The translations under genes and the position numbers were made by a program. From Patescibacteria group bacterium (GTDB lineage Bacteria; Patescibacteriota; Gracilibacteria; UM-FILTER-43-11), in NCBI GenBank assembly GCA_018813295.1, contig JAHJBZ010000066.1:11231-75230 (forward strand): a DNA stretch of 64,000 nt, in the 5' to 3' direction. Below the pieces are notes generated by a model. That model made no database searches, was not told where the DNA came from, and saw only the letters and a list, made by a program, of their open reading frames with translations. This document shows positions 50 to 64,000 of the stretch, in pieces (position 1 is the first letter of the stretch; every line of letters starts with the position of its first letter).

Positions 50-1504
50 ATGATAAAAGACCTCAAACAACTCAGCCCGGGTTTATATGAAATTCCCAAA
101 ACATACAAAAAAGGTATGCTCGTACCTGCACGTATTTTTGCATCTCCGGAGTTATTGGAAAAAATGGACGAAGGTGTTTTTGATCAGGTGACAAATATCG
201 CCACGTTACCAGGAATCGTAGAAGCTGCTTACTGTATGCCGGATGGCCATTGGGGTTATGGATTTCCAATCGGAGGAGTGGCTGCATTCGATCCGGACAA
301 TGACGGAATTATTTCCCCCGGTGGAATTGGTTTTGACATTAATTGCGGCATGCGACTTATTACGACCAATTTGACTGAAGATGATGTAAAACCAAGACTG
401 CATGATTTAATAGACCATTTATATGCCAAAATTCCTGTTGGGGCTGGTCAGCATGGTTTTGTACGCTTACATCAAAAGGAATTCAAACAAGTAATTAAAA
501 AGGGGGCAAGATGGTGCCTGGAAAACGGTTATGCAGAGCAGGAGGATCTGGAAAGAACGGAAAATCACGGTGAATTTAATTGGGCAAATCCTGAAAAAGT
601 ATCCGATAGAGCGATTAAAAGAGGTTATAACCAAATCGGAACGTTAGGAAGCGGAAATCACTATCTGGAAATTCAGGTTGTACGTGATGAAAACATTTTT
701 GATAAAAAATTAGCCAATGCTTTTGGGATTTTTGGTCAAAATCAAATTGTAATCATGTTCCATTGTGGCAGTCGCGGTTTTGGACACCAGGTTGCAACGG
801 ACTACCTCCAAAAATTCCTAAAAAAAATGCCGCAATACGGTATTCCTATACTCGATAAAGAGCTAAGCTGTGCACCATTTAACAGCCAGGAGGGTCAGGA
901 CTATTTTGCAGCCATGGCATGCGCCGCAAACATGGCATTTGCAAACAGGCAGGTAATTTTTCATCAAATTAAAAAGTGTTTCAGTAATATTTTTGGTAAA
1001 ACTCCTCAGGATCTTGGAATAGAACAGCTATATGACGTTACCCACAACACAGCCAAACTGGAGGATCATAAAGTTGGCGGTAAAATCAAAAAATTACTCG
1101 TTCATCGCAAAGGTTCCACACGCTCTTTCCCGCCAGGCCATCCGGATCTGGAGGAGGACTTTCAGGAAACAGGTCAACCGGTTATTATTGGAGGATCTAT
1201 GGCAACTGGTTCTTATTTGCTTGTGGGGACGCAGGAAGCAATGGAAAAAAGTTGGGGTTCCACCGCCCACGGCTCAGGCCGTGCCATGTCTCGCCATAAA
1301 GCAAAAAAAATGGTTAGAGGTAGGGATTTACAGCGAGAAATGGAACAGCAGGGAATTTATGTGAAGACATGCTCTTTTTCCGGTTTAGCAGAAGAAGCTG
1401 GCTTTGCCTACAAAAATATTACTGAAGTAGTTGAAGCCTGTGAGCTTTCAGGAATCTCCAAAAAAGTGGTAGCATTTGAACCAATTGGAAATATTAAAGG
1501 TTAA
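50..1504 (+). CDS. rtcB: RNA ligase RtcB (3'-phosphate/5'-hydroxyl RNA-splicing ligase)
   Basis: 484-aa ORF with RtcB signature blocks HWGYGFPIGG, GGIGFDINCGMR, GSGNHYLE, HCGSRGFGH, GGSMATGSY, STAHGSGR. Confidence 0.95.
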   Translation: MIKDLKQLSPGLYEIPKTYKKGMLVPARIFASPELLEKMDEGVFDQVTNIATLPGIVEAAYCMPDGHWGYGFPIGGVAAFDPDNDGIISPGGIGFDINCGMRLITTNLTEDDVKPRLHDLIDHLYAKIPVGAGQHGFVRLHQKEFKQVIKKGARWCLENGYAEQEDLERTENHGEFNWANPEKVSDRAIKRGYNQIGTLGSGNHYLEIQVVRDENIFDKKLANAFGIFGQNQIVIMFHCGSRGFGHQVATDYLQKFLKKMPQYGIPILDKELSCAPFNSQEGQDYFAAMACAANMAFANRQVIFHQIKKCFSNIFGKTPQDLGIEQLYDVTHNTAKLEDHKVGGKIKKLLVHRKGSTRSFPPGHPDLEEDFQETGQPVIIGGSMATGSYLLVGTQEAMEKSWGSTAHGSGRAMSRHKAKKMVRGRDLQREMEQQGIYVKTCSFSGLAEEAGFAYKNITEVVEACELSGISKKVVAFEPIGNIKG

Positions 1505-1508
1505 CTAT

Positions 1509-2012
1509 ATGAGATTATTCATTTCAATCGACGTGCCAAAAGAATTTCATCGTTACTGTCAGCAATTACAGGATCAGTTTCCTGATATTAGAAAAACAAA
1601 TGAGTTTCATTTAACACTTCAATTTTTGGGTGATGATATTGAAGATGCTGAACCAATTATTGAAACACTAAAAACCATAAAATTCGAACAATTTGAATTA
1701 GAAATGGGTGATGCGCTCCCCTTCCCCAATCCATTTCAACCACGAGGAATTTGGATTGAATGCAAAAAAACTGACGCTCTCGAAAAATTAGCAAATGACA
1801 TACGAGAAGCCTTAGAACCTCTAGGATTTATTCCAGACAAACCTTTTAAAGCGCATATAACTTTAGGCCGATTTAGAAAGCCACCGCATAAAAAACCTGA
1901 AAAAATTGAAGGCGAACAGCACAAATTCACAGTCAATCACTTCAATTTAATGGAAAGCATGCTCAGTCCAATCGGACCGAAATACAAAAGAATAATAAAA
2001 ATAAATTATTAA
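1509..2012 (+). CDS. thpR: 2H-phosphoesterase family RNA 2',3'-cyclic phosphodiesterase / 2'-5' RNA ligase
   Basis: In-frame ATG at 1509, 5 nt after the rtcB stop; the track start at 1476 overlaps rtcB. Two HxTx motifs are present (FHLTLQFLG and AHITLGRF). Confidence 0.85.
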   Translation: MRLFISIDVPKEFHRYCQQLQDQFPDIRKTNEFHLTLQFLGDDIEDAEPIIETLKTIKFEQFELEMGDALPFPNPFQPRGIWIECKKTDALEKLANDIREALEPLGFIPDKPFKAHITLGRFRKPPHKKPEKIEGEQHKFTVNHFNLMESMLSPIGPKYKRIIKINY

Positions 2013-7076: not shown

Positions 7077-7093
7077 TTGAGAATCATTATCAA
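7077..7093. promoter_or_regulatory. Fur/PerR-type operator (7-1-7-like imperfect palindrome)
   Basis: ttgagaatcattatcaa lies 7 nt upstream of the Fur-family gene start. It is an imperfect inverted repeat of the TTGAnAAT / ATTnTCAA type, resembling Fur/PerR boxes. Confidence 0.5.
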
Positions 7094-7099
7094 TAAGAA

Positions 7100-7498
7100 A
7101 TGATAACCAAAGATAAAAATCAGCGAGTTACCAGACAAAGGAAGATTATCCTTGATGAAATATGCAAAGTTTGCTGCCACCCTACTGCAAAGCAAGTTTA
7201 CAAAATGACAAAAAAGAAAATGCCAAATATTGGCTTAGCTACTGTATATAGAACTTTGGACTTTTTGGAAAAAAAGAATTTAATAATCAAATTACAATCA
7301 AAAAATAGTGTTACCAAATACGATGGCAATACTTCAAGACACTGTCATTTAATTTGTAAATTATGTGGTAAAATAATTGATATTTTTGATATTAAAAAAG
7401 TCAAAATAGATTCCGATGAATTAAAAAAGTCCGGTTTTGAGCCATCATTGGATTTTTTAGAAATTCATGGCATATGCAAAAAATGTAAAAATTGTTAA
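7100..7498 (+). CDS. Fur-family metalloregulator (PerR-like by context)
   Basis: 132 aa. Winged-helix segment [18 protein letters not shown]. CxxC pairs HLICKLCGK and GICKKCKNC. It sits directly upstream of rubrerythrin and desulfoferrodoxin. Confidence 0.85.
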
Positions 7499-7526
7499 AA
7501 TCACTTTACCTATTAACCCTATTATC

Positions 7527-8111
7527 ATGAATGAAACAATTCAAAACTTAACAAAAGCATTTATTGGTGAAAGCCAAGCAAGAAATCGATATACGATTTA
7601 TGCAAAAGTCGCTAAAAAGGAAGGATATGAACAAATGTCAGAGATTTTTCTGACTACTGCAGACCAGGAAAGAGAACATGCAAAGTGGTTATTTAGAATG
7701 ATTAATGATTTAAAGAAAGAAAGTTCTAAAAATTTAGACACAATTAATGTAGATGTAGGAGCTCCAACAATAATGAGTGATACAAAAGAAAATCTAAAAG
7801 CAGCAATTGCTGGTGAACATTATGAATATGAATCAATGTATCCAGAATTTGCTGATACAGCTGAAAAAGAGGGATATCCAGATATTGCAAAAAGACTAAG
7901 AGCAATTGCTAACGCAGAAGAGCATCACGAAGAAAGATATAAAAAGCTATTAAAAGAATTAGAAGGAGGTACGGTATTTAAAAAAGCTGAAGAGACAACA
8001 TGGGTTTGTAGCAAATGTGGTCATACTCATACCGGTAATGAAGCACCTGATGCATGCCCTTCGTGAGGTCACCCAACAGCTTATTTTCAAGTAAAATGTG
8101 AAAACTATTAA
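7527..8111 (+). CDS. rbr: Rubrerythrin with in-frame TGA (8064-8066) at the last Cys of the rubredoxin-like CxxC
   Basis: Di-iron motifs [17 protein letters not shown] and EEHHEERY. C-terminal WVCSKCGH..(12)..[23 protein letters not shown]. The frame stays open and family-like for 14 codons after the TGA. The start was moved to ATG 7527, because the 7467 start overlaps the Fur gene. Confidence 0.8.
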
Positions 8112-8130
8112 CTCTTAACTAATTAAGGTT

Positions 8131-8505
8131 ATGACTCAATTAAACCAAATCTATAAATGCAACGTTTGCGGGAATATAGTTGAAATGGTACATGCTGGAG
8201 CTGGCGAACTCGTTTGCTGCGGACAGCCGATGCAATTAATGAAAGAAAACACCGTAGATGCAGCACAAGAAAAACACGTGCCAGTTATCGAAAAAACGGA
8301 CACGGGCATCAAGGTTAAAGTTGGTGACGTGCCTCATCCAATGGAACAAGAGCATTATATTGAATGGATTGAAGTTTTGGCTGACGGAATGAGTTACAAA
8401 AAATTCCTAAATCCAGGTGACGCACCAGAAGCTGAATTTAACGTAACTAGTGATTCAGTCACAGCTCGTGAATACTGCAATTTACATGGACTGTGGAAAT
8501 CCTAG
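8131..8505 (+). CDS. dfx: Desulfoferrodoxin (2Fe superoxide reductase)
   Basis: 124 aa. N-terminal desulforedoxin-like CNVCGN...CCGQPM. Centre II ligand motifs are [18 protein letters not shown] and CNLHGLW. Confidence 0.9.
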
Positions 8506-8510
8506 AATCC

Positions 8511-8891
8511 TCAAGCCACAAACCCGAAATAAGCCATTAGCAAACCAAATACCAAAGTGAAATAAGGCATTATCTTCATGAAACTGCCCGTAAACATTGG
8601 CTCAAACCACTTTGTAAAGCCTGGAAAAATCATAAAATTTATACCTTTGACAACCCCTATCCAGCCAATCAAAGTTATAATAACCGGCCAATCCCATACC
8701 CAAATATTGTGATACTCAATAAGTATCATTCCGATTACGATTCCAAAAAGACTCATTAAGGGGTTAATCGCTGGAGTTTTTATAATGTCCTGAAACATTT
8801 TTTTATAGCTAATGGTGCCCATTAATACACCAATAGACATTGCAATGTAAATGACGCCAATGATTTTGGCAACAAAAATTGAAAGTTCCAT
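8511..8891 (-). CDS. Small integral membrane protein
   Basis: 126 aa, four hydrophobic helices, TGA stop. Confidence 0.6.
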   Translation of the reverse strand: MELSIFVAKIIGVIYIAMSIGVLMGTISYKKMFQDIIKTPAINPLMSLFGIVIGMILIEYHNIWVWDWPVIITLIGWIGVVKGINFMIFPGFTKWFEPMFTGSFMKIMPYFTLVFGLLMAYFGFVA

Positions 8892-8912
8892 ATGAAAAAT
8901 GAGTTATGAAAT

Positions 8913-8990
8913 AATGATTATTTGAGTACTCGTAGCAAGTCCCGCTAAGCGGGACGCAGCGAGAGGATATTTGTTTTTGTGTAAAAAAGT
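8913..8990. repeat. TIR-less remnant of the MITE-like element core
   Basis: atgattattt...ctcgtagcaagtcccgctaagcgggacgcagcgagaggatatttgttt is colinear with the core of the 58674-58830 element (atgattattt...ctgtagagacgtcccgcttagcgggacgtctctacgatatttgttt). Confidence 0.55.
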
Positions 8991-9016
8991 ATTTATTTGA
9001 TTATATCACACATTTA

Positions 9017-9047
9017 AAAAGCCCCCGATGTATATCGGAGGCTTTTT
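9017..9047 (-). terminator. Rho-independent terminator for the minus-strand mini-ORF pair
   Basis: On the minus strand the sequence is gcctccgat-atac-atcgggggc followed by ttttt. The single non-canonical pair is U.G on the minus strand but C.A on the plus strand. Confidence 0.7.
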
Positions 9048-9049
9048 AA

Positions 9050-9169
9050 TTACCAACTATCATCATCCGTTTCATCTTCTTCAAGATTATAACACTTACA
9101 TTCACATTCCGGCTTTCCGCATTCTTCACATAAGGGACAATCTTGTCCACATTCACACTCGTCAAACAT
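9050..9169 (-). CDS. Unannotated 39-aa acidic Cys-rich peptide (MFDECECGQDCPLCEECGKPECECKCYNLEEDETDDDSW)
   Basis: Hand translation of the minus strand gives ATG at 9169 and TAA at 9052-9050. There are 8 Cys in 22 residues. The terminator follows directly. The + strand track ORF 9028-9246 is antisense to it. Confidence 0.5.
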   Translation of the reverse strand: MFDECECGQDCPLCEECGKPECECKCYNLEEDETDDDSW

Positions 9170-9202
9170 ATTTATCTGACTTAAATAATAAAATTCAAAG
9201 AC

Positions 9203-9325
9203 CTATTTCCTCTTTTTGGCCTTTGTCTTTTTTGTGGCTTTTTTAACCACTTTTTTTGTGGCTTTTTTAACCACTTTTTTTGCAGGTTTTTTAGCTGCTT
9301 TTTTTGTTGTTTTTTTCACTGGCAT
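9203..9325 (-). CDS. Unannotated 40-aa Lys-rich basic peptide (MPVKKTTKKAAKKPAKKVVKKATKKVVKKATKKTKAKKRK)
   Basis: Hand translation gives ATG at 9325 and TAG at 9205-9203. It contains a 24-nt tandem duplication (ccactttttttgtggcttttttaa x2 on the + strand) encoding KKVVKKAT twice. The composition is histone H1/Hc-like. Confidence 0.5.
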   Translation of the reverse strand: MPVKKTTKKAAKKPAKKVVKKATKKVVKKATKKTKAKKRK

Positions 9326-9390
9326 AAGTGTAAAAAATTAAGTAATAAATTATTTTAATTATCATTGATTTATATAAAAAAGCAATAGTA

Positions 9391-9430
9391 AAAAAAACGG
9401 CCTAAATTGAGTCGTTTTTAATGGCGGAAC
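9391..9430. repeat. Direct repeat copy 1 (tRNA-Asp 3' end plus terminator)
   Basis: aaaaaaacggcctaaattgagtcgtttttaatggcggaac matches 10206-10245 at 39 of 40 positions. Confidence 0.9.
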
Positions 9431-9449
9431 AATTTAAGAACTTTTTGAA

Positions 9450-10184
9450 TTAAAAATCGAACACTACTTTGATAATCATCAATATAGCAATGCCAATCAT
9501 AGCCTTTCTTATTAATTCATCACCATGCTTCACAGCTAAATGAGAACCAATCCACGCACCAATAAAACTTGATACAAACATTGTTGCAAGTAATGAAATC
9601 GAAACTGTTGAAGCCAAAGCAAGTATAGTCAAAGCTATTGCCGTTTCGGGTATAGCTGCAACTATGTCAGTGCTTCTTGCCTCTAGAAAACTCTTATGAA
9701 AAAAATGAACCAATACTAAAACTGCAAAAGTTGCCCCAGCCATAGCCAAAGCACCACTCCAAATACCAACAAGCAACATAAACAAAAGACCTATAATGCT
9801 CATGGCTTCCTTTTTTAAATCTTTTTTTGGTTTTGCAGGCTTAAGCAAAAAGAATATGCCAACAAAGACACCAATGATGATGATGTACCTCAATAAGCCC
9901 TCAGGTAACCTGACGACGAGATTTGCACCAAAGAAAGATCCGATGCCTAACGGTATCATAATGATCAGTGCCAACTTCCAATTAATACTTTTTGATTTGT
10001 GATAGCCTCGTAATGCACCAATCACAACTCCAAGATCAGACATTCTATTTAAGGCAAGGGTGTTTATCGGTGGAATGCCAAAGGCAAGCATAGTAGGTAT
10101 AGCAAAAACGCCAGCACCCCCAGAAATAGAAGTTACAATTCCCATAACCAATCCCAACGCAGCAATGGATAAAAACTCAATCAT
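9450..10184 (-). CDS. TauE/SafE (TSUP, DUF81) family anion exporter
   Basis: Polytopic membrane protein with GGAGVFAIP and other TSUP-like glycine-rich helices. Start set at MIEFL (10184), because the longer track start runs into the 40-bp repeat. Confidence 0.75.
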   Translation of the reverse strand: MIEFLSIAALGLVMGIVTSISGGAGVFAIPTMLAFGIPPINTLALNRMSDLGVVIGALRGYHKSKSINWKLALIIMIPLGIGSFFGANLVVRLPEGLLRYIIIIGVFVGIFFLLKPAKPKKDLKKEAMSIIGLLFMLLVGIWSGALAMAGATFAVLVLVHFFHKSFLEARSTDIVAAIPETAIALTILALASTVSISLLATMFVSSFIGAWIGSHLAVKHGDELIRKAMIGIAILMIIKVVFDF

Positions 10185-10205
10185 GGATACAGTATACCAA
10201 ATTAC

Positions 10206-10245
10206 AAAAAAACGGCCCAAATTGAGTCGTTTTTAATGGCGGAAC
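10206..10245. repeat. Direct repeat copy 2, overlapping the 3' end of tRNA-Asp
   Basis: aaaaaaacggcccaaattgagtcgtttttaatggcggaac. The last 9 nt, tggcggaac, are the reverse complement of the tRNA-Asp 3' end GUUCCGCCA. Confidence 0.9.
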
Positions 10246-10313
10246 GGACGGGACTTGAACCCGCGACCTCCTGCGTGACAGGCAGGCGTTCTAACCAACT
10301 GAACTACCGCTCC
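10237..10313 (-). tRNA. tRNA-Asp (anticodon GUC), CCA encoded
   Basis: The minus strand reads GGAGCGG-TA-GTTC-AGTTGGTTA-GAAC-G-CCTGC-CTGTCAC-GCAGG-AGGTC-GCGGG-TTCAAGT-CCCGT-CCGTTCC-G-CCA. This is a canonical cloverleaf with a GUC anticodon. Confidence 0.9.
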
Positions 10314-10361
10314 AAAGCTACGATATTGTATAGGATCACTCTATTTTTGTAAATATGAAAT

Positions 10362-10865
10362 TTAAACCTCACCAAAGGCAACTACGTAGTTCTTACCGTA
10401 GTGTTTAGCACATTTTGGACATGTAGTATAAAAGAAATAGAGCTTTTTTTGCTCTTTGCCTTTTGATTTAACAAATTCCCCCATTTCCTTCACCCATTTA
10501 CCTGCATCTTTGAAAGGTCCTTCAAAAACTTTTGATAGATAGACACCGGAAAGCTTAATCATTTCCATACCTGGTACATCTTTGTTAACCGCAAAATAAT
10601 GTTCACCTTTCCATGGGGAAGGGTCGTATGAAAGAGTTATAAAGGCCTCGTCCATTGCATTGGCATCCATAATTTTTTTAAATGAACCTTTGTACATAGA
10701 TCCCATATTGAGGGGAAAATGGAAAAAATTAATAGTAGTTGCTTTTGCAAAAAGCTTGTTATCAAAAATAAACTCCTTATCATTCCACGGAGCAGGATCA
10801 AATCGCGGACAACAACCTGTTTCATTGTCATCCATATTGATTTTTGGTATTTCGTTTATATCCAT
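10362..10865 (-). CDS. Conserved-looking hypothetical protein (CCPRFDP ... TTCPKCAKHYGKNY)
   Basis: 167-aa ORF with TAA stop and Cys motifs at both ends. I cannot name the family. Confidence 0.6.
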   Translation of the reverse strand: MDINEIPKINMDDNETGCCPRFDPAPWNDKEFIFDNKLFAKATTINFFHFPLNMGSMYKGSFKKIMDANAMDEAFITLSYDPSPWKGEHYFAVNKDVPGMEMIKLSGVYLSKVFEGPFKDAGKWVKEMGEFVKSKGKEQKKLYFFYTTCPKCAKHYGKNYVVAFGEV

Positions 10866-10908
10866 GATAAATAAATTAGATTATTCACACGAAATATACC
10901 ATGAAACA

Positions 10909-11211
10909 TTACCCATTAATACCAGCCCTCTTTAAACACTCAACTACTCGTGTTCTTACAGGTGGCGGTAGTTCAAAAACAGAACTGATCCCCCCCCTCC
11001 TTAATAAGGCATTAGTTTCTTCGCGAACAATAATCTCCGCCATTATTCTTTCACCTAAAGAAGCAAAATTACACGCTCTTCTACCAACTCTAGCCTGAAA
11101 AGAATCATCTGCTCCAACTGGTGTCCGATCAACCAATCCACCTCTTGACCTAACAGCCTGATCCAACCATTCCCTTTGATCTGCATAGCCCTGCCTAAAA
11201 CCTTCAAACAT
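10909..11211 (-). CDS. Hypothetical 100-aa R/G/A-rich protein, compositionally atypical
   Basis: Longest ORF in a locally GC-richer patch. The overlapping + strand track ORFs (10660-10935, 10901-11098) are probably by-products of the lower AT content. Confidence 0.4.
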   Translation of the reverse strand: MFEGFRQGYADQREWLDQAVRSRGGLVDRTPVGADDSFQARVGRRACNFASLGERIMAEIIVREETNALLRRGGISSVFELPPPVRTRVVECLKRAGING

Positions 11212-11367
11212 AAAAATTTATTACAGAAAAAATATAGTCTTCAAAACATAACACTATCAAACTATTTATTAATACAATTTAAATTACAAAGTTCTTTTTA
11301 AATATTTTCCTATCTTATTGATTATAAAGCATTTTTATGGTATAATTTATTAATTATAATAATTATT

Positions 11368-18644: not shown

Positions 18645-19193
18645 TTAAGCATTAGAATGTTTTTCAATTAAATTCATAATTCTTATATGACCATTTTCTA
18701 AACCAGATAAAAATACTTTCAAATCTTCTGATTTATGGGAAATCGGAAAAGCAAAATGTTCAGTAATATATATCAATGCACGATCCATACGACATAATAA
18801 CTCAAGAGGAAATTGGACTCCTAATATCTCCACTATATACATTGCATAAAAAAAATCAGTAATACATTTTACATCTTCAGGACACAAAACATTTCTTTGT
18901 GTTTTCATTTTATCAACCACCATTTCCAGCAATTCTACAGCTGCTGATATCTCTTCAGAAGATTCATATTCCTTAAAATCCGGAATATCAGCAGTATATA
19001 ACCTCGCTCTAATTTCCATTAAAGTATTTCGCGCTTCATGGGTAAAATCTATCAGCGCAAAATCCAATAAAAAACCAACAACGGAAAGTGCTTGATTTGC
19101 CTGGTCTGAATCTAAACAGTCAATGTGATCAGCAACCAACTCACGCAACTGCGAAAGAACAATAATATCATCCGATTCTGGTGGTTTTGTCAC
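18645..19193 (-). CDS. Acidic all-helical hypothetical protein, paralog 1 of 3
   Basis: 182 aa from a GTG start. Shares the L..L.RMDRALIYI core with the two upstream genes. The frame is open a further 31 codons upstream, with N-terminal similarity to the paralogs but no ATG. Confidence 0.6.
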   Translation of the reverse strand: MTKPPESDDIIVLSQLRELVADHIDCLDSDQANQALSVVGFLLDFALIDFTHEARNTLMEIRARLYTADIPDFKEYESSEEISAAVELLEMVVDKMKTQRNVLCPEDVKCITDFFYAMYIVEILGVQFPLELLCRMDRALIYITEHFAFPISHKSEDLKVFLSGLENGHIRIMNLIEKHSNA

Positions 19194-19282
19194 TCCGGTA
19201 TTAACATACTTAGCACCAACTGCTTCCAGATCACCAATGATTTTTACTGCATCCGGTCGATTCTTTGAGAGATATTTAAAAA

Positions 19283-19912
19283 CTATTCAGTATCTTCTTC
19301 GCGATCAATCAAAGATTTAACTCTTTGGTGTGTAAATTTAAGTCCCTGAAAATAACCACTCAAAGGCAATTCCCCGCCAACGGTGATAGGAGACATATCT
19401 AAATACAACAACGCATCAGCAAGACGCTGTAGATGGTCCAATGAAATATCATCGCCACTAGCTAAAAGCTCATCAACAGCCATTAAACTTTGACCAAAAG
19501 CAATAGTATCCCTGGAAGGCAAATCCTCCTGCGTCCTAATCTGCTCTACCATAGCAAGAAAAGAACTAATGGATTCATCTACACTTTCATCTTCTTCTCC
19601 CTCGCCATCAAGTGTTAATTTGAGCTGTGAACGATATCGGGCTAATTCATCCTTCATTCTTTCAATAAAAATCCTCTGATTTTCGTTCAATCCTGCCCTC
19701 CTTAATAAATGTTTTAATACCTGACGTGTTCGATCTATTAAATCATCATCTAATAAATCAAAACCACCACCAATCATACTGCATGACCTCATAATCAATT
19801 TAAAATTATCATCGGTTAATAACAATTTTTCAGGTGATTTGGGATAATTTTCTGGTAACGTTTCCAGATTTTCAACGGCTACCTCTAGATTTGGTCTGTC
19901 TACGGAAGGCAT
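19283..19912 (-). CDS. Acidic all-helical hypothetical protein, paralog 2 of 3
   Basis: 209 aa. N-terminus MPSVDRPNLEVAVENLETL, core HLQRLADALLYLDM, C-terminus ..LIDREEDTE. Confidence 0.7.
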   Translation of the reverse strand: MPSVDRPNLEVAVENLETLPENYPKSPEKLLLTDDNFKLIMRSCSMIGGGFDLLDDDLIDRTRQVLKHLLRRAGLNENQRIFIERMKDELARYRSQLKLTLDGEGEEDESVDESISSFLAMVEQIRTQEDLPSRDTIAFGQSLMAVDELLASGDDISLDHLQRLADALLYLDMSPITVGGELPLSGYFQGLKFTHQRVKSLIDREEDTE

Positions 19913-20776: not shown

Positions 20777-23134
20777 TTATCTAAGATATGCCGGCAAATA
20801 AATGGGCTTCTTAAGCCCTTTAACCTTCTTAACAATATCCAAATCATTCAAATCCAATTTTCCGTAATATAAATCGGTCAAATCCCCTCCTTTACTCACA
20901 AAATCTAATATCATTCGATACCCCTTAAAATAAACAAAGTCTTTGGTAAATGCCCCAGGTTTACTCGTGTCAGCCAATCCTCGTTTCGCCTTAATGGCCA
21001 CTTTCCATGCACGCTCAGCATCAAAACCAAGCTCTAGAATCTTGGCATAAATATCAGCAAAACTACCATTCAGAGCAGTATGAATACCGATTACAGAAGA
21101 TGCAGGCCAATATTTCTTTTGCGTTTCACTGGATTCGGTTTTTTCCTGGTTGTAAACAGCCAAACCTTCTTCGGTCATAAGATAATCAGCCAAGCCACGT
21201 TGAAATAATTTATAAGGCTGTAGTGCACCGTTCATAGCTGTAAAAGCATGAGTTTCAATCTCGTGGGCAATTGTACCTTTAAGTCTATCTTCAGAAAAAG
21301 TTGCATCACTGCGAATAGAAATGGTGTTTTGTTTACCCGCAACTGCATCAGAAACAAGTTCATCCTTAAGTTTAACGCGCCACCCCTTAAGGCCATAATC
21401 TTCAATTGCTTTTTCAAAAACCTTTTTAGCTTCTTTGGCGGACAAAACTTTTCCAGGTGCAGGAAATTTATCGGGCATAAATTTTATTTCATCATAAGCT
21501 TGATTTACAAGCTCTTCATTTGGCGCACCATATAGGTGAATGGATTTTGCAGTAAAATGACCAGTCCCACGAGACTCGAGAAGTTCAATTTTACGTTGAA
21601 TCTCATCAGCTTTCTTTCTCCAAAGAATTCCTATGGGTGTATTTGGGAACTCGATACGTTTTAAACGCGTATAAAGATTATTAGGGTCAAAAGAAAGCTC
21701 CTTGTACTTAAACTTAGGATTATATTTTGGATCCACAAGGAACTTAGTATGCTCTTCTCTTAAATTGATGGGCTTTAAGTGCGATAATAATTTAATTTGA
21801 TCATCGATGTCAAAAAGCTCCTGATCAATTTTCTCAAGATCTTTGTCGGTAAACGTTTTAGCTATATATGGAACATCTGTGGCTTTTTGCTCCGAAGAAG
21901 CAGGAGTCATATGCTTGCTTGGATCAATTAAAAAGTTTCTAAGATCTCTTTGTCCAACAAGCATTTTAAATTTTTCCTCACTAAAGTCTGCTGTATCAAC
22001 CACGGTTGTTATACGTTGATCGGCAAGGTTAAATTTACATTTTCCCGACTCATCTAATCCAATTTTTTGAGCAATGGTCTTGTCTAAAATAGACTTTTCC
22101 GTATGGGGATCCATTTGAGCAACAATTTTTGCATTATCTTTTCTTCCAATTGCCTCAACGCGCTCTAAATTTCCAATTACAATTTTTTCCGTCTTTTTTT
22201 CTTGCTTAGTTTCAGCTTTTTCGCCAAAAATATCCCGGGCAATACGCACGCCTTTCTCAGGAGTAGTCACTTTAATGCCCTCAACTCTTTCCAAACGACG
22301 ACGCAATGGAGCCATATTAGCAATTTGCACAGCAAGACCTGCACGAGCATTAATCTCTAAAAGTACTGGCCCCATATTTTTATCAAGAGTTAAATCAACT
22401 GCAGCAAAACCAAGATTTGTAACCTGCTGTACCCGGGAGGCAATTAAAAGCATTTCCTCCCAATGAGGTATTTTAATTCCTTTAACATCACCAAATCCTG
22501 GAATTCCATCTATCGATTTATTATATTGAGTTATATAGGTTAAATTGCCATTGCCGATATCAATTCCAACACCAACACCACCTAAATGAATATTAGCTTT
22601 ACCTTGGGAGCTTTCGGTTGGCAAGCGTAGCATAGCCATTACAGGAATAAGGTTATGCACCACAATTCGGATATCAGGAAGCCCCTTGTAGGCTATTTTT
22701 TTAAACATATCAGGCGCAATAAGCAGTTGCTCAAAAAGTGCAACATCGGAAATATCCGCAAGTGAATAGCGTCCATCAAGAATATCATTTATATGCCTCT
22801 CTAATTCCGCCTGAGTAAAAACTTCATCATTCCCACTAACCCAGTTACTCCCCTTACGCCCCTTAATGATCAAAATACCTTCACCCCCATAACCAGAATT
22901 AGGTTTAACTACAAAAGAATTAGGCAGACTATTGAAATCAAAATTTTTAAGTTCTTTTTTACTATGTATTGCATTGTAAAGGCGCGCCACAGGTATGCCG
23001 CGAGCGGACAAAAAGTTCTTTGTCTTAATTTTGCTATCAGCAAGCATTACAGCCTTTTTAGGGTTGTAAGCCTTGATATACAAGAGATTCCTGGCATTTA
23101 TTCCGAGCAAGCCCGGATTATGGAAAAACCACAT
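20777..23134 (-). CDS. Fusion protein: RimK-related ATP-grasp ligase (N-terminal) plus DUF1704/QEGLA/MATCAP-type metallocarboxypeptidase (C-terminal)
   Basis: 785 aa. The N-terminus (GINARNLLYIKAYNPKK..ADSKIKTKNFL..VVKPNSGYGGEGI) resembles alpha-L-glutamate-ligase-related proteins. The C-terminus has HEIETHAFTAMNG and TEEGLAVYNQE, that is HExxH plus the QEGLA-like motif. Confidence 0.8.
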   Translation of the reverse strand: MWFFHNPGLLGINARNLLYIKAYNPKKAVMLADSKIKTKNFLSARGIPVARLYNAIHSKKELKNFDFNSLPNSFVVKPNSGYGGEGILIIKGRKGSNWVSGNDEVFTQAELERHINDILDGRYSLADISDVALFEQLLIAPDMFKKIAYKGLPDIRIVVHNLIPVMAMLRLPTESSQGKANIHLGGVGVGIDIGNGNLTYITQYNKSIDGIPGFGDVKGIKIPHWEEMLLIASRVQQVTNLGFAAVDLTLDKNMGPVLLEINARAGLAVQIANMAPLRRRLERVEGIKVTTPEKGVRIARDIFGEKAETKQEKKTEKIVIGNLERVEAIGRKDNAKIVAQMDPHTEKSILDKTIAQKIGLDESGKCKFNLADQRITTVVDTADFSEEKFKMLVGQRDLRNFLIDPSKHMTPASSEQKATDVPYIAKTFTDKDLEKIDQELFDIDDQIKLLSHLKPINLREEHTKFLVDPKYNPKFKYKELSFDPNNLYTRLKRIEFPNTPIGILWRKKADEIQRKIELLESRGTGHFTAKSIHLYGAPNEELVNQAYDEIKFMPDKFPAPGKVLSAKEAKKVFEKAIEDYGLKGWRVKLKDELVSDAVAGKQNTISIRSDATFSEDRLKGTIAHEIETHAFTAMNGALQPYKLFQRGLADYLMTEEGLAVYNQEKTESSETQKKYWPASSVIGIHTALNGSFADIYAKILELGFDAERAWKVAIKAKRGLADTSKPGAFTKDFVYFKGYRMILDFVSKGGDLTDLYYGKLDLNDLDIVKKVKGLKKPIYLPAYLR

Positions 23135-34129: not shown

Positions 34130-35761
34130 ATGCCTCAATGCACAACTTGCTCCAATTCATTTGAAACCCGAGATGCAGATCGTACGTTCTACAAAAAATT
34201 TGATGCACCGGATCCCAAAAAATGCCCGGACTGCCGTTTGCAGCAACGATTAAATTTTCGTAATGAACGTACTCTCTACAAACGTACCAGTAATCTTTCC
34301 GGAAAAAGTATGATCTCCATTTATTCTCCGGAAAGCAAATATCAAATATATAGTACTGACGAATGGTGGAGTGACAAATGGGATGGCCTGAACTACGGAC
34401 GAGAATTTAATTTCAGCAGGCCTTTCTTTGAGCAGTTCCAAGATTTACTATTAAGAATACCTCGCATTACCCTTTTTAATGTAAACCCAACCAACAGTGA
34501 ATACTGCCAACAGGCTTATAACAACAAAGGATGTCATTTATGTATGGTGGTAACAGATTGTGAAGATTGCATGTATATCTCTCATACCAACCACGCTAAA
34601 GATTCCTTTGATTCAACATACACGCATCACATGGAATTATGTTATGAATGCTTAGATAGCAACCAGCTATATGGATGTATAGAATGCCAGAGTTGCCAGG
34701 GCTCAAACGGACTTATGTATTGTTACGATTGTATTGGATGCAGAGATTGTTTTGGTAGCTGGGGACTGCGTAACAAAGAAAATTACATTTTTAATAAACG
34801 CTATTCAAAAGAAGAATATAAAGAAAAAATAAATTCACTTGAATTAGGTAAATCACCTAATTATCTAGAATACAAAAAATACTTTCAGGATTTGATGAAA
34901 ACTCGGGTACACCGGGCTAGCCGAAATATTAATATTTTTGACTCAACTGGAAACTACCTGATCAATGCGCAAAACTGTCATGAATGTTTTGATTCATTTC
35001 AAATTCAAGACTGCGCGTATTGCACATGGATTTTTGAAAGCAATAACTGCCAGGATGTATATGGACTTGGTGGTAGTGGATGGGTATATAACTGTCTTGG
35101 AAATGAGAAGGTGAACAATGTAGCTTTCAATACTTTTGTTTCTGATGGTGGAGATATTTATTACAGCGATCTTTGTTTTTATTCTATGAATTTATTTGGC
35201 TGTGCTGGATTAAGGAACAAAAAACATTGTATTTTTAATAAGCAATATTCACCGGAAGAATATGAAAAATTAAGAGCTCAGATAATCGAACATATGAAAA
35301 AAACAGGTGAATGGGGTGAGTTTTTCCCGGTTTCACTTTCACCTTTTGCATACAACGAGACCGCCGCTCAAAATTATTTCCCATTAACAAAAGAGGAGGC
35401 AGAAAAACAGGGATTTGCATGGAAAACTTCAAAGGAAATTGATCAAAAAGAGCAAATATATAAAATACCGGAAGATATTAAAGACGTTCAGGATGACATC
35501 ACTGAAAATATTGTGGTTTGCTCATGCAATAAGCGTTATCAAATCGATCCAGTGGAATTAAAGTTTTATAAAGAAAAGAATATTCCTATTCCACTCAAAT
35601 GTCATGACTGCCGTTACGCAGATCGTTTAAAGCTGAGAAACCCACGAAAACTATACAAACGAAATTGTGCCAAATGTAATGCCGAAATTCAGACAACTTA
35701 TGCGCCGGATAGACCGGAAGTGATATACTGCGAGCAGTGCTATTTAAAAGAAGTGGATTAA
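34130..35761 (+). CDS. Cys-rich zinc-ribbon/repeat protein, paralog A (543 aa)
   Basis: N- and C-terminal CxxC...FYxK...P.P..CP.CR...R...RN.R.LYKR modules. The middle is internally duplicated Cys-rich repeats, each ending GLRNK..(I/C)(F/I).NK.YS.EEYE. It also carries the conserved GEWGEFFP.S.SPFAYNET.AQ.YFP motif. Confidence 0.8.
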   Translation: MPQCTTCSNSFETRDADRTFYKKFDAPDPKKCPDCRLQQRLNFRNERTLYKRTSNLSGKSMISIYSPESKYQIYSTDEWWSDKWDGLNYGREFNFSRPFFEQFQDLLLRIPRITLFNVNPTNSEYCQQAYNNKGCHLCMVVTDCEDCMYISHTNHAKDSFDSTYTHHMELCYECLDSNQLYGCIECQSCQGSNGLMYCYDCIGCRDCFGSWGLRNKENYIFNKRYSKEEYKEKINSLELGKSPNYLEYKKYFQDLMKTRVHRASRNINIFDSTGNYLINAQNCHECFDSFQIQDCAYCTWIFESNNCQDVYGLGGSGWVYNCLGNEKVNNVAFNTFVSDGGDIYYSDLCFYSMNLFGCAGLRNKKHCIFNKQYSPEEYEKLRAQIIEHMKKTGEWGEFFPVSLSPFAYNETAAQNYFPLTKEEAEKQGFAWKTSKEIDQKEQIYKIPEDIKDVQDDITENIVVCSCNKRYQIDPVELKFYKEKNIPIPLKCHDCRYADRLKLRNPRKLYKRNCAKCNAEIQTTYAPDRPEVIYCEQCYLKEVD

Positions 35762-35844: not shown

Positions 35845-37476
35845 ATGAAAAACTGTAAAAACTGCACCACCGAATTCGAAATAGCAGAACAGGATCGTAA
35901 ATATTACGAAAAAATTAACGTGCCCGAACCTACACACTGCCCAACATGCCGCCAACAACGGAGGTATGCAATTCGCAATGAAAGAAATCTATACAAAAGA
36001 AAATGTGGCATGTGTAATAAGGAATTGGTATCGATGTATTCCCCAGACAAACCATTCCCTATTTACTGCCCAAGCTGTTGGTGGGAGGGTGATTGGCATG
36101 GGACTAGCTACGCACAGGAATTTGATTTTAGTAGACCCTTTTTTGATCAGTTTAGAGATTTACAAAACAAAGTTCCACGAATCAGTTTGTATTTAGTTAA
36201 TTCGGAAAATTGTGACTACTGCAACTTTGTTGGTGACTGCAAAAATTGTTATTTAACGTTCGGATCTGTTTATTCAGAAGATTGTTTATACGGTTCTGCA
36301 TACTATTCAAAAAACTGCATGGACAATTTGGTGACCAGAGAATGTGAACTATGTTATGAGTGCACGGACAGCAGAAAATTATATAACTGTTTGTATTGCC
36401 AGGACTGCTATCATTCAGATCATCTGCTTTTTTGTTATGACCTGCAGGGGTGTAGTGAGTGTATTGCATGTGCGGGGCTAAGAAATAAAAAATATCACAT
36501 CGAAAATAAGCCTTATTCAAAAGAGGAATATGAAGCAATCAAATCTAAAATAAATTTTTGCAGCTCAAAGCAATTAGAAGGTGTACATGAGCAGCTAAAG
36601 AAGATGAAATTGGAAATTCCACATCATTTTATGCCAAATAGCAACGTACAAAACGTAAGCGGTACTCATATTTACAATTCAAAAAACACCCACCACTCAT
36701 TTTATGTAGATAGATGTGAAGACTGTGCATACTGCATGCAGGTTGTAGACTTAAAAGATTGCTACGACAACAATTACACCGAAGAAAATGAATTGTGTTA
36801 TGAATATCTTGGAATGTATGGGGCGAAAAATACTTTTTACTCAACTTTCTCCAGACATTCATACGATGTTTTTTATTCTGAATACACTATTAACGCCAAA
36901 AATTTATTTGGATGTAGCAATATTCACAAAAAGGACTTTTGTATTTTGAACAAGCCTTACTCAGAAGAAGAATATAAAGAACTTGTTCCAAAAATAATCG
37001 ACCATATGAAGGAAGCCGGTGAATGGGGAGAATTTTTTCCTATAAGCCACTCACCATTCGCATACAACGAAACAGTTGCGCAAGAATATTTCCCAATGGA
37101 AAAGGGGGGAGCCACTGGCAAGGGTTACAAGTGGAAAGACCCAGACCAAAAAGAATGCCAACCTCAAACAACCGAAGTTCCTGTAGAGATTAAAGATGTT
37201 CAGGATTCAATTTTAAATGAAGTTTTAGCTTGCAGCGACTGCAAAAAAAATTACAAAATAATTTCGCAGGAATTAAAATTTTATCGCAATATACACCTGC
37301 CTATTCCAAAAAAATGCCCCGACTGCAGACATAAAAACAGACTCTCGCTCCGCAATCCTCGCAAACTATTCAGCAGGCAGTGTAATAAGTGTAATACAGA
37401 TATTCAGACAACTTATGCACCAGACAGACCGGAGAAAGTTTATTGTGAAAAATGCTATCACGAATCGGTATACTAA
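35845..37476 (+). CDS. Cys-rich zinc-ribbon/repeat protein, paralog B (543 aa)
   Basis: Same length and architecture as 34130-35761, roughly 40% identical by eye. It retains the second N-terminal ribbon (RKCGMCN...YCPSCWW) that is degenerate in paralog A. Confidence 0.8.
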   Translation: MKNCKNCTTEFEIAEQDRKYYEKINVPEPTHCPTCRQQRRYAIRNERNLYKRKCGMCNKELVSMYSPDKPFPIYCPSCWWEGDWHGTSYAQEFDFSRPFFDQFRDLQNKVPRISLYLVNSENCDYCNFVGDCKNCYLTFGSVYSEDCLYGSAYYSKNCMDNLVTRECELCYECTDSRKLYNCLYCQDCYHSDHLLFCYDLQGCSECIACAGLRNKKYHIENKPYSKEEYEAIKSKINFCSSKQLEGVHEQLKKMKLEIPHHFMPNSNVQNVSGTHIYNSKNTHHSFYVDRCEDCAYCMQVVDLKDCYDNNYTEENELCYEYLGMYGAKNTFYSTFSRHSYDVFYSEYTINAKNLFGCSNIHKKDFCILNKPYSEEEYKELVPKIIDHMKEAGEWGEFFPISHSPFAYNETVAQEYFPMEKGGATGKGYKWKDPDQKECQPQTTEVPVEIKDVQDSILNEVLACSDCKKNYKIISQELKFYRNIHLPIPKKCPDCRHKNRLSLRNPRKLFSRQCNKCNTDIQTTYAPDRPEKVYCEKCYHESVY

Positions 37477-37564: not shown

Positions 37565-39295
37565 ATGAACTTTGTTACAACCCCAAACACCACCAAACAA
37601 ATTGACCTCCTTCTAATCAATCCCGACTTCTCAAAAAATGAGTTAGGTGTTACATCAGCTCCGGAAAATCATTTAGGACTTAATAGGTTGGCGGGGTATT
37701 TGGCAAAAAAGGGACACAAGTGTGCAGTGATCGACACAACTGGACGTGAGAGCGGAACAAGTGGACCGGAAAATTTAGGTAAATGGATCGCAGACCACGC
37801 GCAGGAATACAAATCAATCGGATTCCATACAAATTCCTGGAACATAAATCATATTCTCCGTGCACTTAACGAGTGCAGATCTGCATTGAAAAACAAAAAA
37901 GTTTTATTTGGAGGACCGCTTGCAAGTTCTGAGCCAAAAAAAATGACTGAGCTTTTAATGGAGTCCGGACTCCAAAACATTGGAGTTGTGGAAGGACTCG
38001 GGGAAAAGATTACAGACGAAATTTTGAATAAAAATAACCTGTCGGACGTAAATGGACTCTGGTGTTTTGAGAATGGAAAGTTTAAAGAGGGTGAAAAAGT
38101 GGCCCTAACACAAGAGGAATTCGAAGGCACCCCATTTCTTGATCTTGAATACAATACTTTTTACCAAAATTACTACAAACCGGTAATCGAAAGTGGTGAT
38201 TTGGATAATTTCAGCATGGAAATTATTTTCGGTTCACAGGGGCTGGATGTAAACCGCGGCTGCCCTTTCAAATGCACCTATTGTTCGGTACCGCAATATG
38301 AAAGAAAGCTAATTACCTACTCACCAAAAAGGGTTGTTGATGAATTGGAATACCTAGCCAAAGAAGCAGGGTTTTTCATGTTCACTTTCACCAACTCAAA
38401 CATAATGTTTTATGACCAGTTATGGATTCAGGAGTTCTGCCGGGAAGTTATCGGGAGAGGAATGAACGATTATATAAATTGGACCGCATATCATCACCCA
38501 AGCATCATTGCGAAACTCCCGTTATCCGATTTCAACCTAATGAGAAAAGCTGGATCGGATAATATTGTATTCGGAATACAGAGTTTTGAAGAAAAAATCT
38601 TAAAACTTTTTATGCGGCCGCTGAATACCAGAGAGCTAACAGAAGTAATCAGAGAAAAAACCTTAAACTCCAAACAATATTTAACCGTAGACTACATAAC
38701 AGGCGTACCAGGGGAAGATTTGGACGTGATAGAAGATGCATTTAACTACTTTATCGACAACGAAATTGAATGTCGCAACTATCAGCTGAAGTTTTACCCA
38801 AATACAAAACTGCCAACTATGGATTTGGACATGTCGGATCATGATTTGGTACCAATAACAGGAGAACTTGCACCGGAATTAAATGCATATGCAATAGTTT
38901 CAAAGCATCCAAACCCAAAAGCAGCAAAATTGGACGGGATGTTACGTGAGGCAAATGAAGATTTAACAAAAAACCGCCCACCAAGACTTGGAAAATATAT
39001 TGTCGACTCCGCGGAAACCGCAAAAATGCTGTACGAAAAAGAAATTCCAGACAATCCAAACATTCCGGATAAAGTAAAACGCGCCATGCGCATCGCACTT
39101 CACGAAATGCTCAATCCAAAAAAACGTGAGCAGACTTTGGAAGGGCTGGATCCAATGGAAATGATGAAAAAGGTAATAATGGCAGGAAACGACGCCCCGC
39201 CAATGGTTAAAGCAATGCAGGAGAAATTGAAAAATGAATTAGGAGAAGGAAAATTTAAGGAATTAAGAGATAAATACGGACAAAATGGTATTTAA
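37565..39295 (+). CDS. B12-binding-domain radical SAM enzyme (class B-like)
   Basis: 576 aa. N-terminal Rossmann-like segment (LLLINPDF...LAGYLAKKGHKCAVIDT). Radical SAM cluster motif GCPFKCTYCSV (CxxxCxxC). Confidence 0.85.
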   Translation: MNFVTTPNTTKQIDLLLINPDFSKNELGVTSAPENHLGLNRLAGYLAKKGHKCAVIDTTGRESGTSGPENLGKWIADHAQEYKSIGFHTNSWNINHILRALNECRSALKNKKVLFGGPLASSEPKKMTELLMESGLQNIGVVEGLGEKITDEILNKNNLSDVNGLWCFENGKFKEGEKVALTQEEFEGTPFLDLEYNTFYQNYYKPVIESGDLDNFSMEIIFGSQGLDVNRGCPFKCTYCSVPQYERKLITYSPKRVVDELEYLAKEAGFFMFTFTNSNIMFYDQLWIQEFCREVIGRGMNDYINWTAYHHPSIIAKLPLSDFNLMRKAGSDNIVFGIQSFEEKILKLFMRPLNTRELTEVIREKTLNSKQYLTVDYITGVPGEDLDVIEDAFNYFIDNEIECRNYQLKFYPNTKLPTMDLDMSDHDLVPITGELAPELNAYAIVSKHPNPKAAKLDGMLREANEDLTKNRPPRLGKYIVDSAETAKMLYEKEIPDNPNIPDKVKRAMRIALHEMLNPKKREQTLEGLDPMEMMKKVIMAGNDAPPMVKAMQEKLKNELGEGKFKELRDKYGQNGI

Positions 39296-57332: not shown

Positions 57333-57422
57333 TAAGCCAAAAAAAACCTAAAAAAGTATTGCATATATATGATATCTGCATATATACTTATTAATGTTAA
57401 ATTATTTTTTAATTCATTTGTT

Positions 57423-57983
57423 ATGGGGCTCAAAAATAAAAAAGGGTTTACTCTTATAGAACTCTTAATTGTCATCGGTATCATCGCAATCCTTGCTGGT
57501 ATCGTTCTTGTTGCTGTAAATCCAGCACAACAATTTGGTAAAGCTAACGATTCTGAACGTAAATCAGAAATCGGTACTCTTCTGAGTGCAGTTTACCAAT
57601 ATCAAACCTCTCCAACAGCACGTGGCGCATTACCAGAGTGTTCACTTGGTGCTGTACCTGCTGATACAGCAATTCCTGAATGTGATGATCCAACCGGACC
57701 AGGAGGCATATTTGACGGAGCCTTAGAGCTCGGAACACCTGCTGATGCAGACACTTATGACTGTTCAACTGCTTTAATTCCTTCATATCTTCGTGAGATA
57801 CCTATCGACCCAACCAGTGCTACATACGACGCAACTGCAACCGGTTATTACATTTGTCAGGATACAAGCGGAGCAGTATCCCGTGTTTACGTACTTGCCG
57901 TTGGCGCAGAAGTATATACAGATGATGGTGGCTGTGAACATCCAGATGGATCAGGAGATCCTGTAATGTGTGTTTCCGGCTGA
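57423..57983 (+). CDS. Type IV major pilin, paralog 1
   Basis: MGLKNKKG|FTLIELLIVIGIIAILAGIVLVAV class III signal, start at internal ATG 57423. C-terminal Cys pair. TGA stop. Confidence 0.9.
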   Translation: MGLKNKKGFTLIELLIVIGIIAILAGIVLVAVNPAQQFGKANDSERKSEIGTLLSAVYQYQTSPTARGALPECSLGAVPADTAIPECDDPTGPGGIFDGALELGTPADADTYDCSTALIPSYLREIPIDPTSATYDATATGYYICQDTSGAVSRVYVLAVGAEVYTDDGGCEHPDGSGDPVMCVSG

Positions 57984-62849: not shown

Positions 62850-63476
62850 TTAAGCAGCCGCCTGAATCTTCGCCTTAACAACCATGGTATTAATAATCGC
62901 ACCGCGTTCCATTTCTCCAAGCTTCATTTGAATAAACTTAATCGTATCCTTTAAATCAGGAATCATGCGGTATTCAAGTGCATTTACACGGCGACGGGTC
63001 TTTTCAAGTTCCTCCGCTAAAGCCTCAGCGGATTTTTCAATTTCAGCCAACTTGATAAGCAGGGGGAAAGTGTCCTGAAAAGATTGCAATGCGATATCTA
63101 ATTCACCGCTGGTTTGCAAAAAACCATAACTTACAACTTCTCCTTCGGTTTCCAGTTTAAAATGAGGAATGCGAACTGACATTACATTTTTGGTTTCAAC
63201 TTTTAGTTCAGTTTTAGCAGTGGAATAAAGAAGTGCACCTTCCAGCATTTCCTCTTCCATCAAAGAATTAGCACGAATGAAGTTTTTAAATGCAGCACCG
63301 AGTTTTTGCTCTACTTCTTCACGAACAGCTTTAGCTTCGCGTATCACTTCCATAAATTTCTGCATCAAACCATCCTGCTTATCTTTAAGCAGTTTATGTC
63401 CACGCTTTGCACTCTTAATCTTCTTCTTAAGAGTTAGCAGAGCCATCCTGGTTGCATTAACATTCAATATCGCCAT
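62850..63476 (-). CDS. ntpD: V-type ATP synthase subunit D
   Basis: 208 aa. N-terminus NATRMALLTLKKKIKSAKRGHKLLKDKQD and C-terminus RRVNALEYRMIPDL are typical of V/A-type subunit D. Confidence 0.9.
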   Translation of the reverse strand: MAILNVNATRMALLTLKKKIKSAKRGHKLLKDKQDGLMQKFMEVIREAKAVREEVEQKLGAAFKNFIRANSLMEEEMLEGALLYSTAKTELKVETKNVMSVRIPHFKLETEGEVVSYGFLQTSGELDIALQSFQDTFPLLIKLAEIEKSAEALAEELEKTRRRVNALEYRMIPDLKDTIKFIQMKLGEMERGAIINTMVVKAKIQAAA

Positions 63477-63553
63477 ATTAATTGATTACAATTGACATTT
63501 GACCATTGACCTTTGACTTCTTTAGTCAATTGTCAAATGTTAAAGGTCAAATG
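63477..63553. repeat. Heptamer mirror-repeat spacer between V-ATPase B and D
   Basis: ttgacat ttgacca ttgacct ttgactt ... gtcaatt gtcaaat .. ggtcaaat. The left and right halves are imperfect reverse complements. Confidence 0.85.
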
Positions 63554-64000
63554 TTATTTCATATATTTCTCAATATGCTCCTCCTTAACACGCTTCAATT
63601 CAGCTTTCGGCAAAATCTTAAGCAGTTCCCAGCCAAGATTTAGAGAATCTTCAATATCACGATCCTCATGCTCACCCTGGCGAATAAATTTATCTTCAAA
63701 AGCTACTGCAAACTTCATATAAGCACGATCGGTTTCATCAAGAGCTGCTTCACCAAGAATAACAGCAAGTTCGCGAACATCGTTACCGCGTGCATAAGAA
63801 GCATAAAGCTGGTTCATAACACCACTATGATCTTCGCGGGTTTTACCTTCACCAATACCTTTATCTTTCAGGCGGGAAAGTGAAGGAAGTACATCAACTG
63901 GCGGATAAATACCCTTACGATGAAGCTCACGACTCATTACAATCTGACCTTCTGTAATATAACCAGTTAAGTCAGGAATTGGGTGGGTAATGTCATCTTC
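63554..64000 (-). CDS. ntpB: V-type ATP synthase subunit B (C-terminal part; gene continues past the window edge)
   Basis: The frame is open to position 64000: [44 protein letters not shown], a hallmark V/A-ATPase B segment. The track Met at 63937 is internal. Confidence 0.9.

Follow-up and report, generated by a model that had tools for sequence, protein, structure and literature searches.

An in-frame TGA at the fourth rubredoxin-like cysteine codon of a Patescibacteria rubrerythrin gene is very probably a recent nonsense allele segregating in a near-clonal population

Does a TGA codon that interrupts a rubrerythrin gene exactly at the last metal-ligand cysteine of its rubredoxin-like centre encode selenocysteine, is it read through, or is it a sign of decay? 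This question is raised by a locus on a 64,000-nucleotide stretch of DNA from a Patescibacteria group bacterium (hereafter the window; G+C content 37%). Three forward-strand genes, assigned with Pfam, form an oxidative-stress cluster at positions 7100-8505. The first encodes a Fur-family (PerR-like) regulator (7100-7498; Pfam FUR, E = 5.5e-28), the second is the rubrerythrin gene (rbr), whose TGA-terminated ORF of 179 codons extends from 7527 to 8066, and the third encodes a desulfoferrodoxin-type superoxide reductase (8131-8505; Pfam Desulfoferrod_N and Desulfoferrodox). The combination of fur-family, rbr and superoxide reductase genes is an arrangement typical of anaerobes, and a Fur-family gene is also located 5' of rbr in the orthologous loci L024, L025 and L026. 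The ATG at 7527 (MNETIQ...) was taken as the start of rbr, as it matches the starts of the homologues read (P0001, P0003 and P0004; others begin with MNKTIQ, MNQTIQ or MKQTIQ). The start of the longest ORF, at 7467, was rejected because it overlaps the fur-family gene and because the homologue starts fit 7527.

Positions 8055-8111 read TGC CCT TCG TGA GGT CAC CCA and continue in frame to AAC TAT TAA. In agreement with the initial annotation, the ORF thus stops at CPS-TGA (8064-8066), and the in-frame tail that is cut off, together with the original TAA, occupies positions 8067-8111. Translation of the TGA as Cys yields a protein of 194 amino acids, which matches the Pfam family Rubrerythrin (PF02915, E = 3.9e-39, profile positions 2-137 of 137) and the rubredoxin-like domain RUBY_RBDX (PF21349, E = 6.6e-13, profile positions 1-29 of 30). 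Its best protein match, with 100% identity, is MBU1934922.1 (P0001), recorded as 'rubrerythrin family protein [Patescibacteria group bacterium]'. Moreover, it aligns to the last residue with classical rubrerythrins (E = 2e-49 to 8e-52), such as that of D. vulgaris (Rbr; PDB 1RYT/1LKM) and 9FJ2, which have the same N-terminal diiron four-helix bundle and C-terminal CxxC...CPxC rubredoxin-like domain. Together, the Pfam domains, the identity to P0001 and the alignment to the solved structures 1RYT and 9FJ2 place the downstream frame far beyond chance. The same alignment identifies the TGA as the second Cys of the C-terminal CPxC, i.e. the fourth FeCys4 ligand. This bears out two earlier claims, namely that the TGA replaces the final metal-ligand Cys and that the 14 codons following it encode the canonical rubrerythrin C-terminus, the latter being confirmed by the RUBY_RBDX match and the end-to-end alignment with 9FJ2/1RYT.

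The TGA allele differs from the classical rubrerythrins in that it ends one codon before the fourth Cys, and hence lacks this ligand and the final 14 residues (15 in total). The diiron ferritin-like four-helix bundle is retained (PF02915; alignment to 1RYT), but the four-Cys rubredoxin-like domain is incomplete, with three Cys residues before the stop against all four in the TGC allele described below. In combining a diiron bundle with the lack of a functional FeCys4 domain, the truncated product would resemble sulerythrin (1J30), symerythrin (3QHB) and the short rubrerythrins 4DI0/9ONM, which match as homologues over residues 3-149. These are evolved stand-alone proteins, however, whereas the TGA allele keeps an attached three-Cys remnant of the domain and is one mutational step old.

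The question was settled by comparison of near-identical public assemblies. Contig JAHJFI010000099.1 of assembly GCA_018824965.1 (4215 bp), on which P0001 is encoded, is identical to window positions 7077-11291 except for position 8066, where it has C instead of A, giving TGC (Cys). The Logan contigs of SRR27458548 (L002, 3324 bp) and SRR2544004 (L003, 1294 bp) also show one mismatch each to the window, which is again a C at 8066 (TGC). By contrast, contig JAHJJM010000090.1 of GCA_018822925.1 (20,362 bp) has the A, and hence the TGA, and a rubrerythrin of 179 amino acids is called on it. The possibility that the TGA is private to the window was therefore rejected; it was a look-up with longer flanks that gave GCA_018822925.1. 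Among the public assemblies of this population the TGA is present in two, the window included, and absent in three.

A single-base difference in otherwise identical sequence, with three assemblies reading C, might be thought to reflect an assembly or sequencing error, the true base being C in every strain. This alternative, also offered by the initial annotation, was not borne out and is very unlikely. GCA_018822925.1, in which the A was called independently, differs from the window at positions 4660 and 9004 and has other contig ends, which indicates that it is a separate assembly sharing the TGA allele; in addition, the 179-amino-acid product (P0121) is recorded in NCBI nr on two contigs. 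The presence of the TGA in a second, distinguishable assembly shows that it is a real segregating allele and not an error.

Alignment of public contigs with the window revealed 2 differences in 22.6 kb for GCA_018824965.1 and 9 differences in 45.5 kb for GCA_018822925.1, and contigs of SRR2540949 showed 5 differences in 15 kb. The population is nearly clonal, with very few SNPs, position 8066 being one of them. Biofilms growing in the anaerobic groundwater of deep bedrock fractures were the source of the read sets SRR2540949 and SRR2544004 (PMC5364579). The haplotypes at positions 8066 and 9004 are A,T in the window, A,C in GCA_018822925.1 and C,T in GCA_018824965.1, a distribution consistent with the A allele having arisen once and a further mutation having followed. 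Both alleles share the same 45 nt 3' of the TGA, indicating that the change is recent and that no decay has yet followed.

Several other differences within this population were noted. The intergenic position 19264, between ORFs 18645-19193 and 19283-19912, is T in the window and A in GCA_018822925.1, GCA_018824965.1 and SRR2540949; this private SNP indicates that the window represents a third, distinct assembly or haplotype. The window is separated from both GCA_018822925.1 and SRR2540949 by four SNPs that span only 26 bp (57395-57420). They fall in the 5' portion of a gene encoding a type IV pilin-like (N_methyl) protein (57369-57983, forward strand) and may reflect local recombination or diversifying selection. 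Two additional SNPs are present at 50835 and 50848. Finally, in GCA_018824965.1 a gene for a 785-amino-acid ATP-grasp/MATCAP protein (window 20777-23134, reverse strand) is interrupted near position 22180 by sequence unrelated to it. Contig JAHJFI010000209.1 departs from the window over its first 608 bp (window about 21570-22180), which encode a transposase-like C-terminus (...HYHNLWHVEQAFRVAKSDLEIRPIFH...), and the remaining half of the gene is found at the end of another contig (L022). The interruption is probably a strain-specific IS insertion.

Some Patescibacteria lineages read TGA as a sense codon; in Gracilibacteria and Absconditabacteria, UGA encodes Gly. As the annotation places the present organism in the Patescibacteria group, we considered whether the TGA in rbr might be an ordinary Gly (code 25) or Trp (code 4) codon. 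The 60 non-overlapping ORFs of at least 100 codons in the window end with TAA (46), TAG (8) or TGA (6), and under translation table 11 ORFs of up to 1102 amino acids contain no in-frame TGA. At the five TGA stops other than that of rbr, further stops follow in frame within 2-23 codons and the short continuations encode nothing recognisable. Hence, TGA is a rare genuine stop elsewhere in the window, as had been proposed, and the view that wholesale reassignment is unlikely is confirmed by the ORF structure, on which we rejected codes 4 and 25. Besides, neither Gly nor Trp would restore the metal site. The chance that the TGA is a reassigned sense codon is thus negligible.

The state of the codon in more distant relatives was also established. 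The six closest homologues were read as sequences, and each of them has Cys at the site; the 120 homologues among the matches listed are all full length (190-221 amino acids). At the nearest orthologous loci, which have the same fur-rbr(-sor) order and encode proteins with 92% and 82% identity, the codon is TGC and TGT, respectively. These homologues and orthologous loci indicate that Cys is the ancestral state. The initial annotation had asked whether TGA alternates with TGC or TGT in orthologues and whether a conserved stem-loop follows; the nearest orthologues have TGC or TGT only, and the candidate hairpin is broken in them (see below).

We then scanned one genome per GTDB species (596 Gb) and the JGI metagenomes with the degenerate DNA pattern TGYCCNNNNTGAGGNCAYCCNNNNNNNTAYTT, which corresponds to C-P-x-TGA-G-H-P-x-x-Y-F. 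The GTDB species genomes yielded 2 matches and the JGI metagenomes 7. Apart from a locus of Clostridium beijerinckii HUN142 (NZ_JHXK01000013.1; L007, 7148-7520) and a matching metagenome contig (Ga0079104_1004552; L014), these lay out of frame and were due to chance. The C. beijerinckii remnant resembles the window in having a TGA at the same Cys codon: the surrounding motif is CPV-C-GHPQGYF with TGA at the last Cys, and the metagenome contig shows the same state. In C. beijerinckii, however, the N- and C-terminal parts of rbr lie in different frames and several in-frame stops are present, so that this gene is an evident pseudogene. It shows what the site in the window would look like after further decay. 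No other intact rbr with a TGA at this codon was found in the GTDB species genomes (596 Gb) or the JGI metagenomes. The allele of the window itself was not recovered either, which indicates that this population is not represented with the TGA in either collection. Taken over the orthologues, the listed homologues and the pattern scans, the UGA is not kept in diverged orthologues, and among intact rbr genes the TGA is confined to one clone.

An in-frame UGA aligned with a conserved metal-ligand Cys of the homologues and followed by an intact, conserved frame is nonetheless what a selenoprotein gene looks like, and a TGC-to-TGA difference between strains is how a Cys-to-Sec conversion would be expected to appear. 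Decoding of the UGA by SelB and tRNA-Sec would give a rubredoxin-like centre with one Se ligand. A hairpin, UUUUCA-N9-UGAAAA (8084-8104, forward strand), is located some 20-24 nt past the UGA, and a hairpin about 24 nt past a UGA has a spacing compatible with bacterial SECIS elements. The hairpin exists, and the statements that it is weak and that evidence for a SECIS element is poor held up upon folding. The calculated stability of the hairpin is negligible (-1.2 kcal/mol, z = -0.29), and its only C-G pair is lost in both orthologues (C8088 to G) without a compensating change. The 50 nt from the UGA have a minimum free energy (MFE) of -3.5 kcal/mol (z = +0.57), 142 of the 200 shuffled sequences folding at least as well; for 60 nt the MFE is again -3.5 kcal/mol (z = +0.93; 168 of 200 shuffles at least as stable), and the 81-nt context of the UGA has a z of +0.40. 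None of the stretches of 29-81 nt after the UGA folded better than its shuffles. Likewise, no SECIS family was detected with Rfam, either at gathering thresholds over the whole window or at E<=10 over positions 7950-8250, the output consisting of two tRNAs and three chance-level matches. Given that the sequence downstream of the codon is the same in the Cys allele, no SECIS has co-evolved with the UGA, and any such element would have had to pre-exist, unselected, in a Cys-encoding gene.

The components required for Sec decoding were not found in the DNA at hand either. The 64-kb window contains tRNA-Asp and tRNA-Leu but no tRNA-Sec, and no SelA, SelB or SelD domain was found among the window proteins scanned or in the annotations on matching contigs. 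The rbr gene shares an in-frame UGA at a position where homologues have Cys with bacterial Sec/Cys pairs (for example FdhA, SelD and peroxiredoxin; PMC1794560). In known selenoprotein genes the UGA is immediately followed by a SECIS hairpin, and the genomes concerned contain selA, selB, selC and selD (PMC1794560), whereas here such a hairpin is absent and a Cys allele with identical downstream sequence exists. The site is also of another kind: Sec typically serves in catalysis as a redox-active residue, whereas the position in rbr provides a structural ligand to the iron of an electron-transfer centre. Two large surveys of bacterial selenoproteomes (PMC1794560, PMC5029168) make no mention of rubrerythrin, and our literature search returned, among the papers listed, neither a Sec-containing rubrerythrin nor a report of Sec use or decoding in Patescibacteria. 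Strain variants with TGT or TGC had been named at the outset as evidence against selenocysteine, and TGC is what GCA_018824965.1, SRR27458548 and SRR2544004 carry. With TGC at the codon in three otherwise identical assemblies, no SECIS-like structure and no other intact rbr with this TGA in the collections scanned, the selenocysteine option is not supported and we consider it extremely unlikely. There is a similarly minute chance that the TGA is decoded as Sec, or efficiently as Cys, and represents a one-step Cys-to-Sec conversion still polymorphic in a natural Patescibacteria population. This would require Sec machinery elsewhere in a small genome and decoding that is independent of a SECIS or relies on a very weak one; if true, this would be the first case of a genetically encoded Se ligand in a rubredoxin-type iron centre.

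The results obtained are, with high probability, explained by a recent TGC-to-TGA nonsense allele that segregates in the population and shortens Rbr by 15 residues; in anoxic deep groundwater the truncation is probably tolerated. The stop is derived, the sister strains and the orthologues have a sense codon, and no recoding signal was detected. Of the options put forward initially, it is therefore decay that is supported, in the form of a recent nonsense allele with TGC in sister assemblies and orthologues and TGA in two assemblies. The change is a transversion from C to A in the third base of the last Cys codon, which turns TGC into TGA, in one sub-lineage of the near-clonal population. The resulting product of 179 amino acids would keep the diiron peroxidase bundle, but its rubredoxin-like FeCys4 domain would be without the last strand and the fourth Cys ligand. 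In classical rubrerythrins such as D. vulgaris Rbr, electrons reach the diiron peroxidase site by way of the FeCys4 centre. Since the fourth ligand of this centre is lost, electron relay to the diiron site would be impaired and peroxidase function lost or strongly reduced; as judged from the alignment to solved structures, the TGA allele is most likely a loss-of-function or strongly weakened variant. Its tolerance is probably due to weak selection on peroxide defence in anoxic deep groundwater, with which its persistence on two haplotypes would be consistent. A second gene-disrupting variant in the same population, that of the 785-amino-acid gene in GCA_018824965.1, was counted in support of the nonsense-allele explanation. 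Two points were counted against it: the substitution falls exactly on a metal-ligand Cys codon, and the presence of the TGA allele on at least two haplotypes implies that it is not being purged quickly.

Consequences of the early stop for the downstream gene seem unlikely. The superoxide reductase gene begins 20 nt past the original rbr TAA, and no terminator-like site was found on the forward strand in the interval between the two genes. With AAGG as a ribosome-binding site of its own, the superoxide reductase gene is unlikely to suffer a polar effect of the TGA.

The stop itself may be leaky. UGA is the leakiest stop codon in bacteria, and both the reading frame past it and the original TAA have been preserved, so that a Trp or Cys tRNA reading the UGA as a near-cognate codon would yield a small fraction of full-length protein. 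The molecules with Cys inserted would be functional, making the allele weakened rather than null. As an account of the locus this is improbable. There is no stimulatory structure and no sequence sign of programmed readthrough, and background readthrough normally amounts to a few percent at most and inserts mostly Trp, which cannot bind iron. Readthrough is a modifier of the nonsense-allele explanation rather than an alternative to it; although no signal supports it, readthrough at a low level could give traces of full-length protein.

Regarded as a nonsense allele, the TGA is of an ordinary kind in a well-known gene. It nevertheless provides a caution, as an in-frame TGA at a conserved Cys followed by an intact frame mimics a selenoprotein gene and is here a very young nonsense mutation. 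P0121 is deposited in NCBI as an ordinary protein of 179 amino acids, for which the label truncated allele would be more accurate. In addition, this near-clonal Patescibacteria population from deep groundwater carries both a segregating truncation of an oxidative-stress enzyme and a separate transposase-like insertion, which together fit relaxed selection and ongoing gene loss in reduced genomes.

Some further features of the window are worth recording. Near the oxidative-stress cluster, a gap without called genes (8892-9449) contains two small unannotated ORFs on the reverse strand (9050-9169 and 9203-9325), and the SNP at 9004 lies immediately upstream of them. One ORF encodes a Cys/Glu-rich peptide of 39 amino acids (MFDECECGQDCPLCEECGKPECECKCYNLEEDETDDDSW) without a Pfam match, and the other a Lys/Ala-rich, histone-like peptide of 40 amino acids. 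An RNA-repair cluster at the start of the window (50-2012, forward strand) encodes RtcB and a LigT/2',5'-RNA-ligase-like protein, with an archease gene just upstream of the window; on a longer public contig (L018, 54-4486) the cluster is preceded by a gene for a TraC/VirB4-like ATPase. Tandem paralogues at 34130-35761 and 35845-37476 (forward strand) encode Cys-rich proteins of 543 amino acids each that are 44% identical and have terminal treble-clef zinc-finger matches; they are followed by a gene for a B12-binding radical SAM enzyme (37565-39295, forward strand). At the other edge of the window (62850-63937, reverse strand), subunit D and the C-terminal part of an A/B subunit of an A/V-type ATP synthase are encoded.
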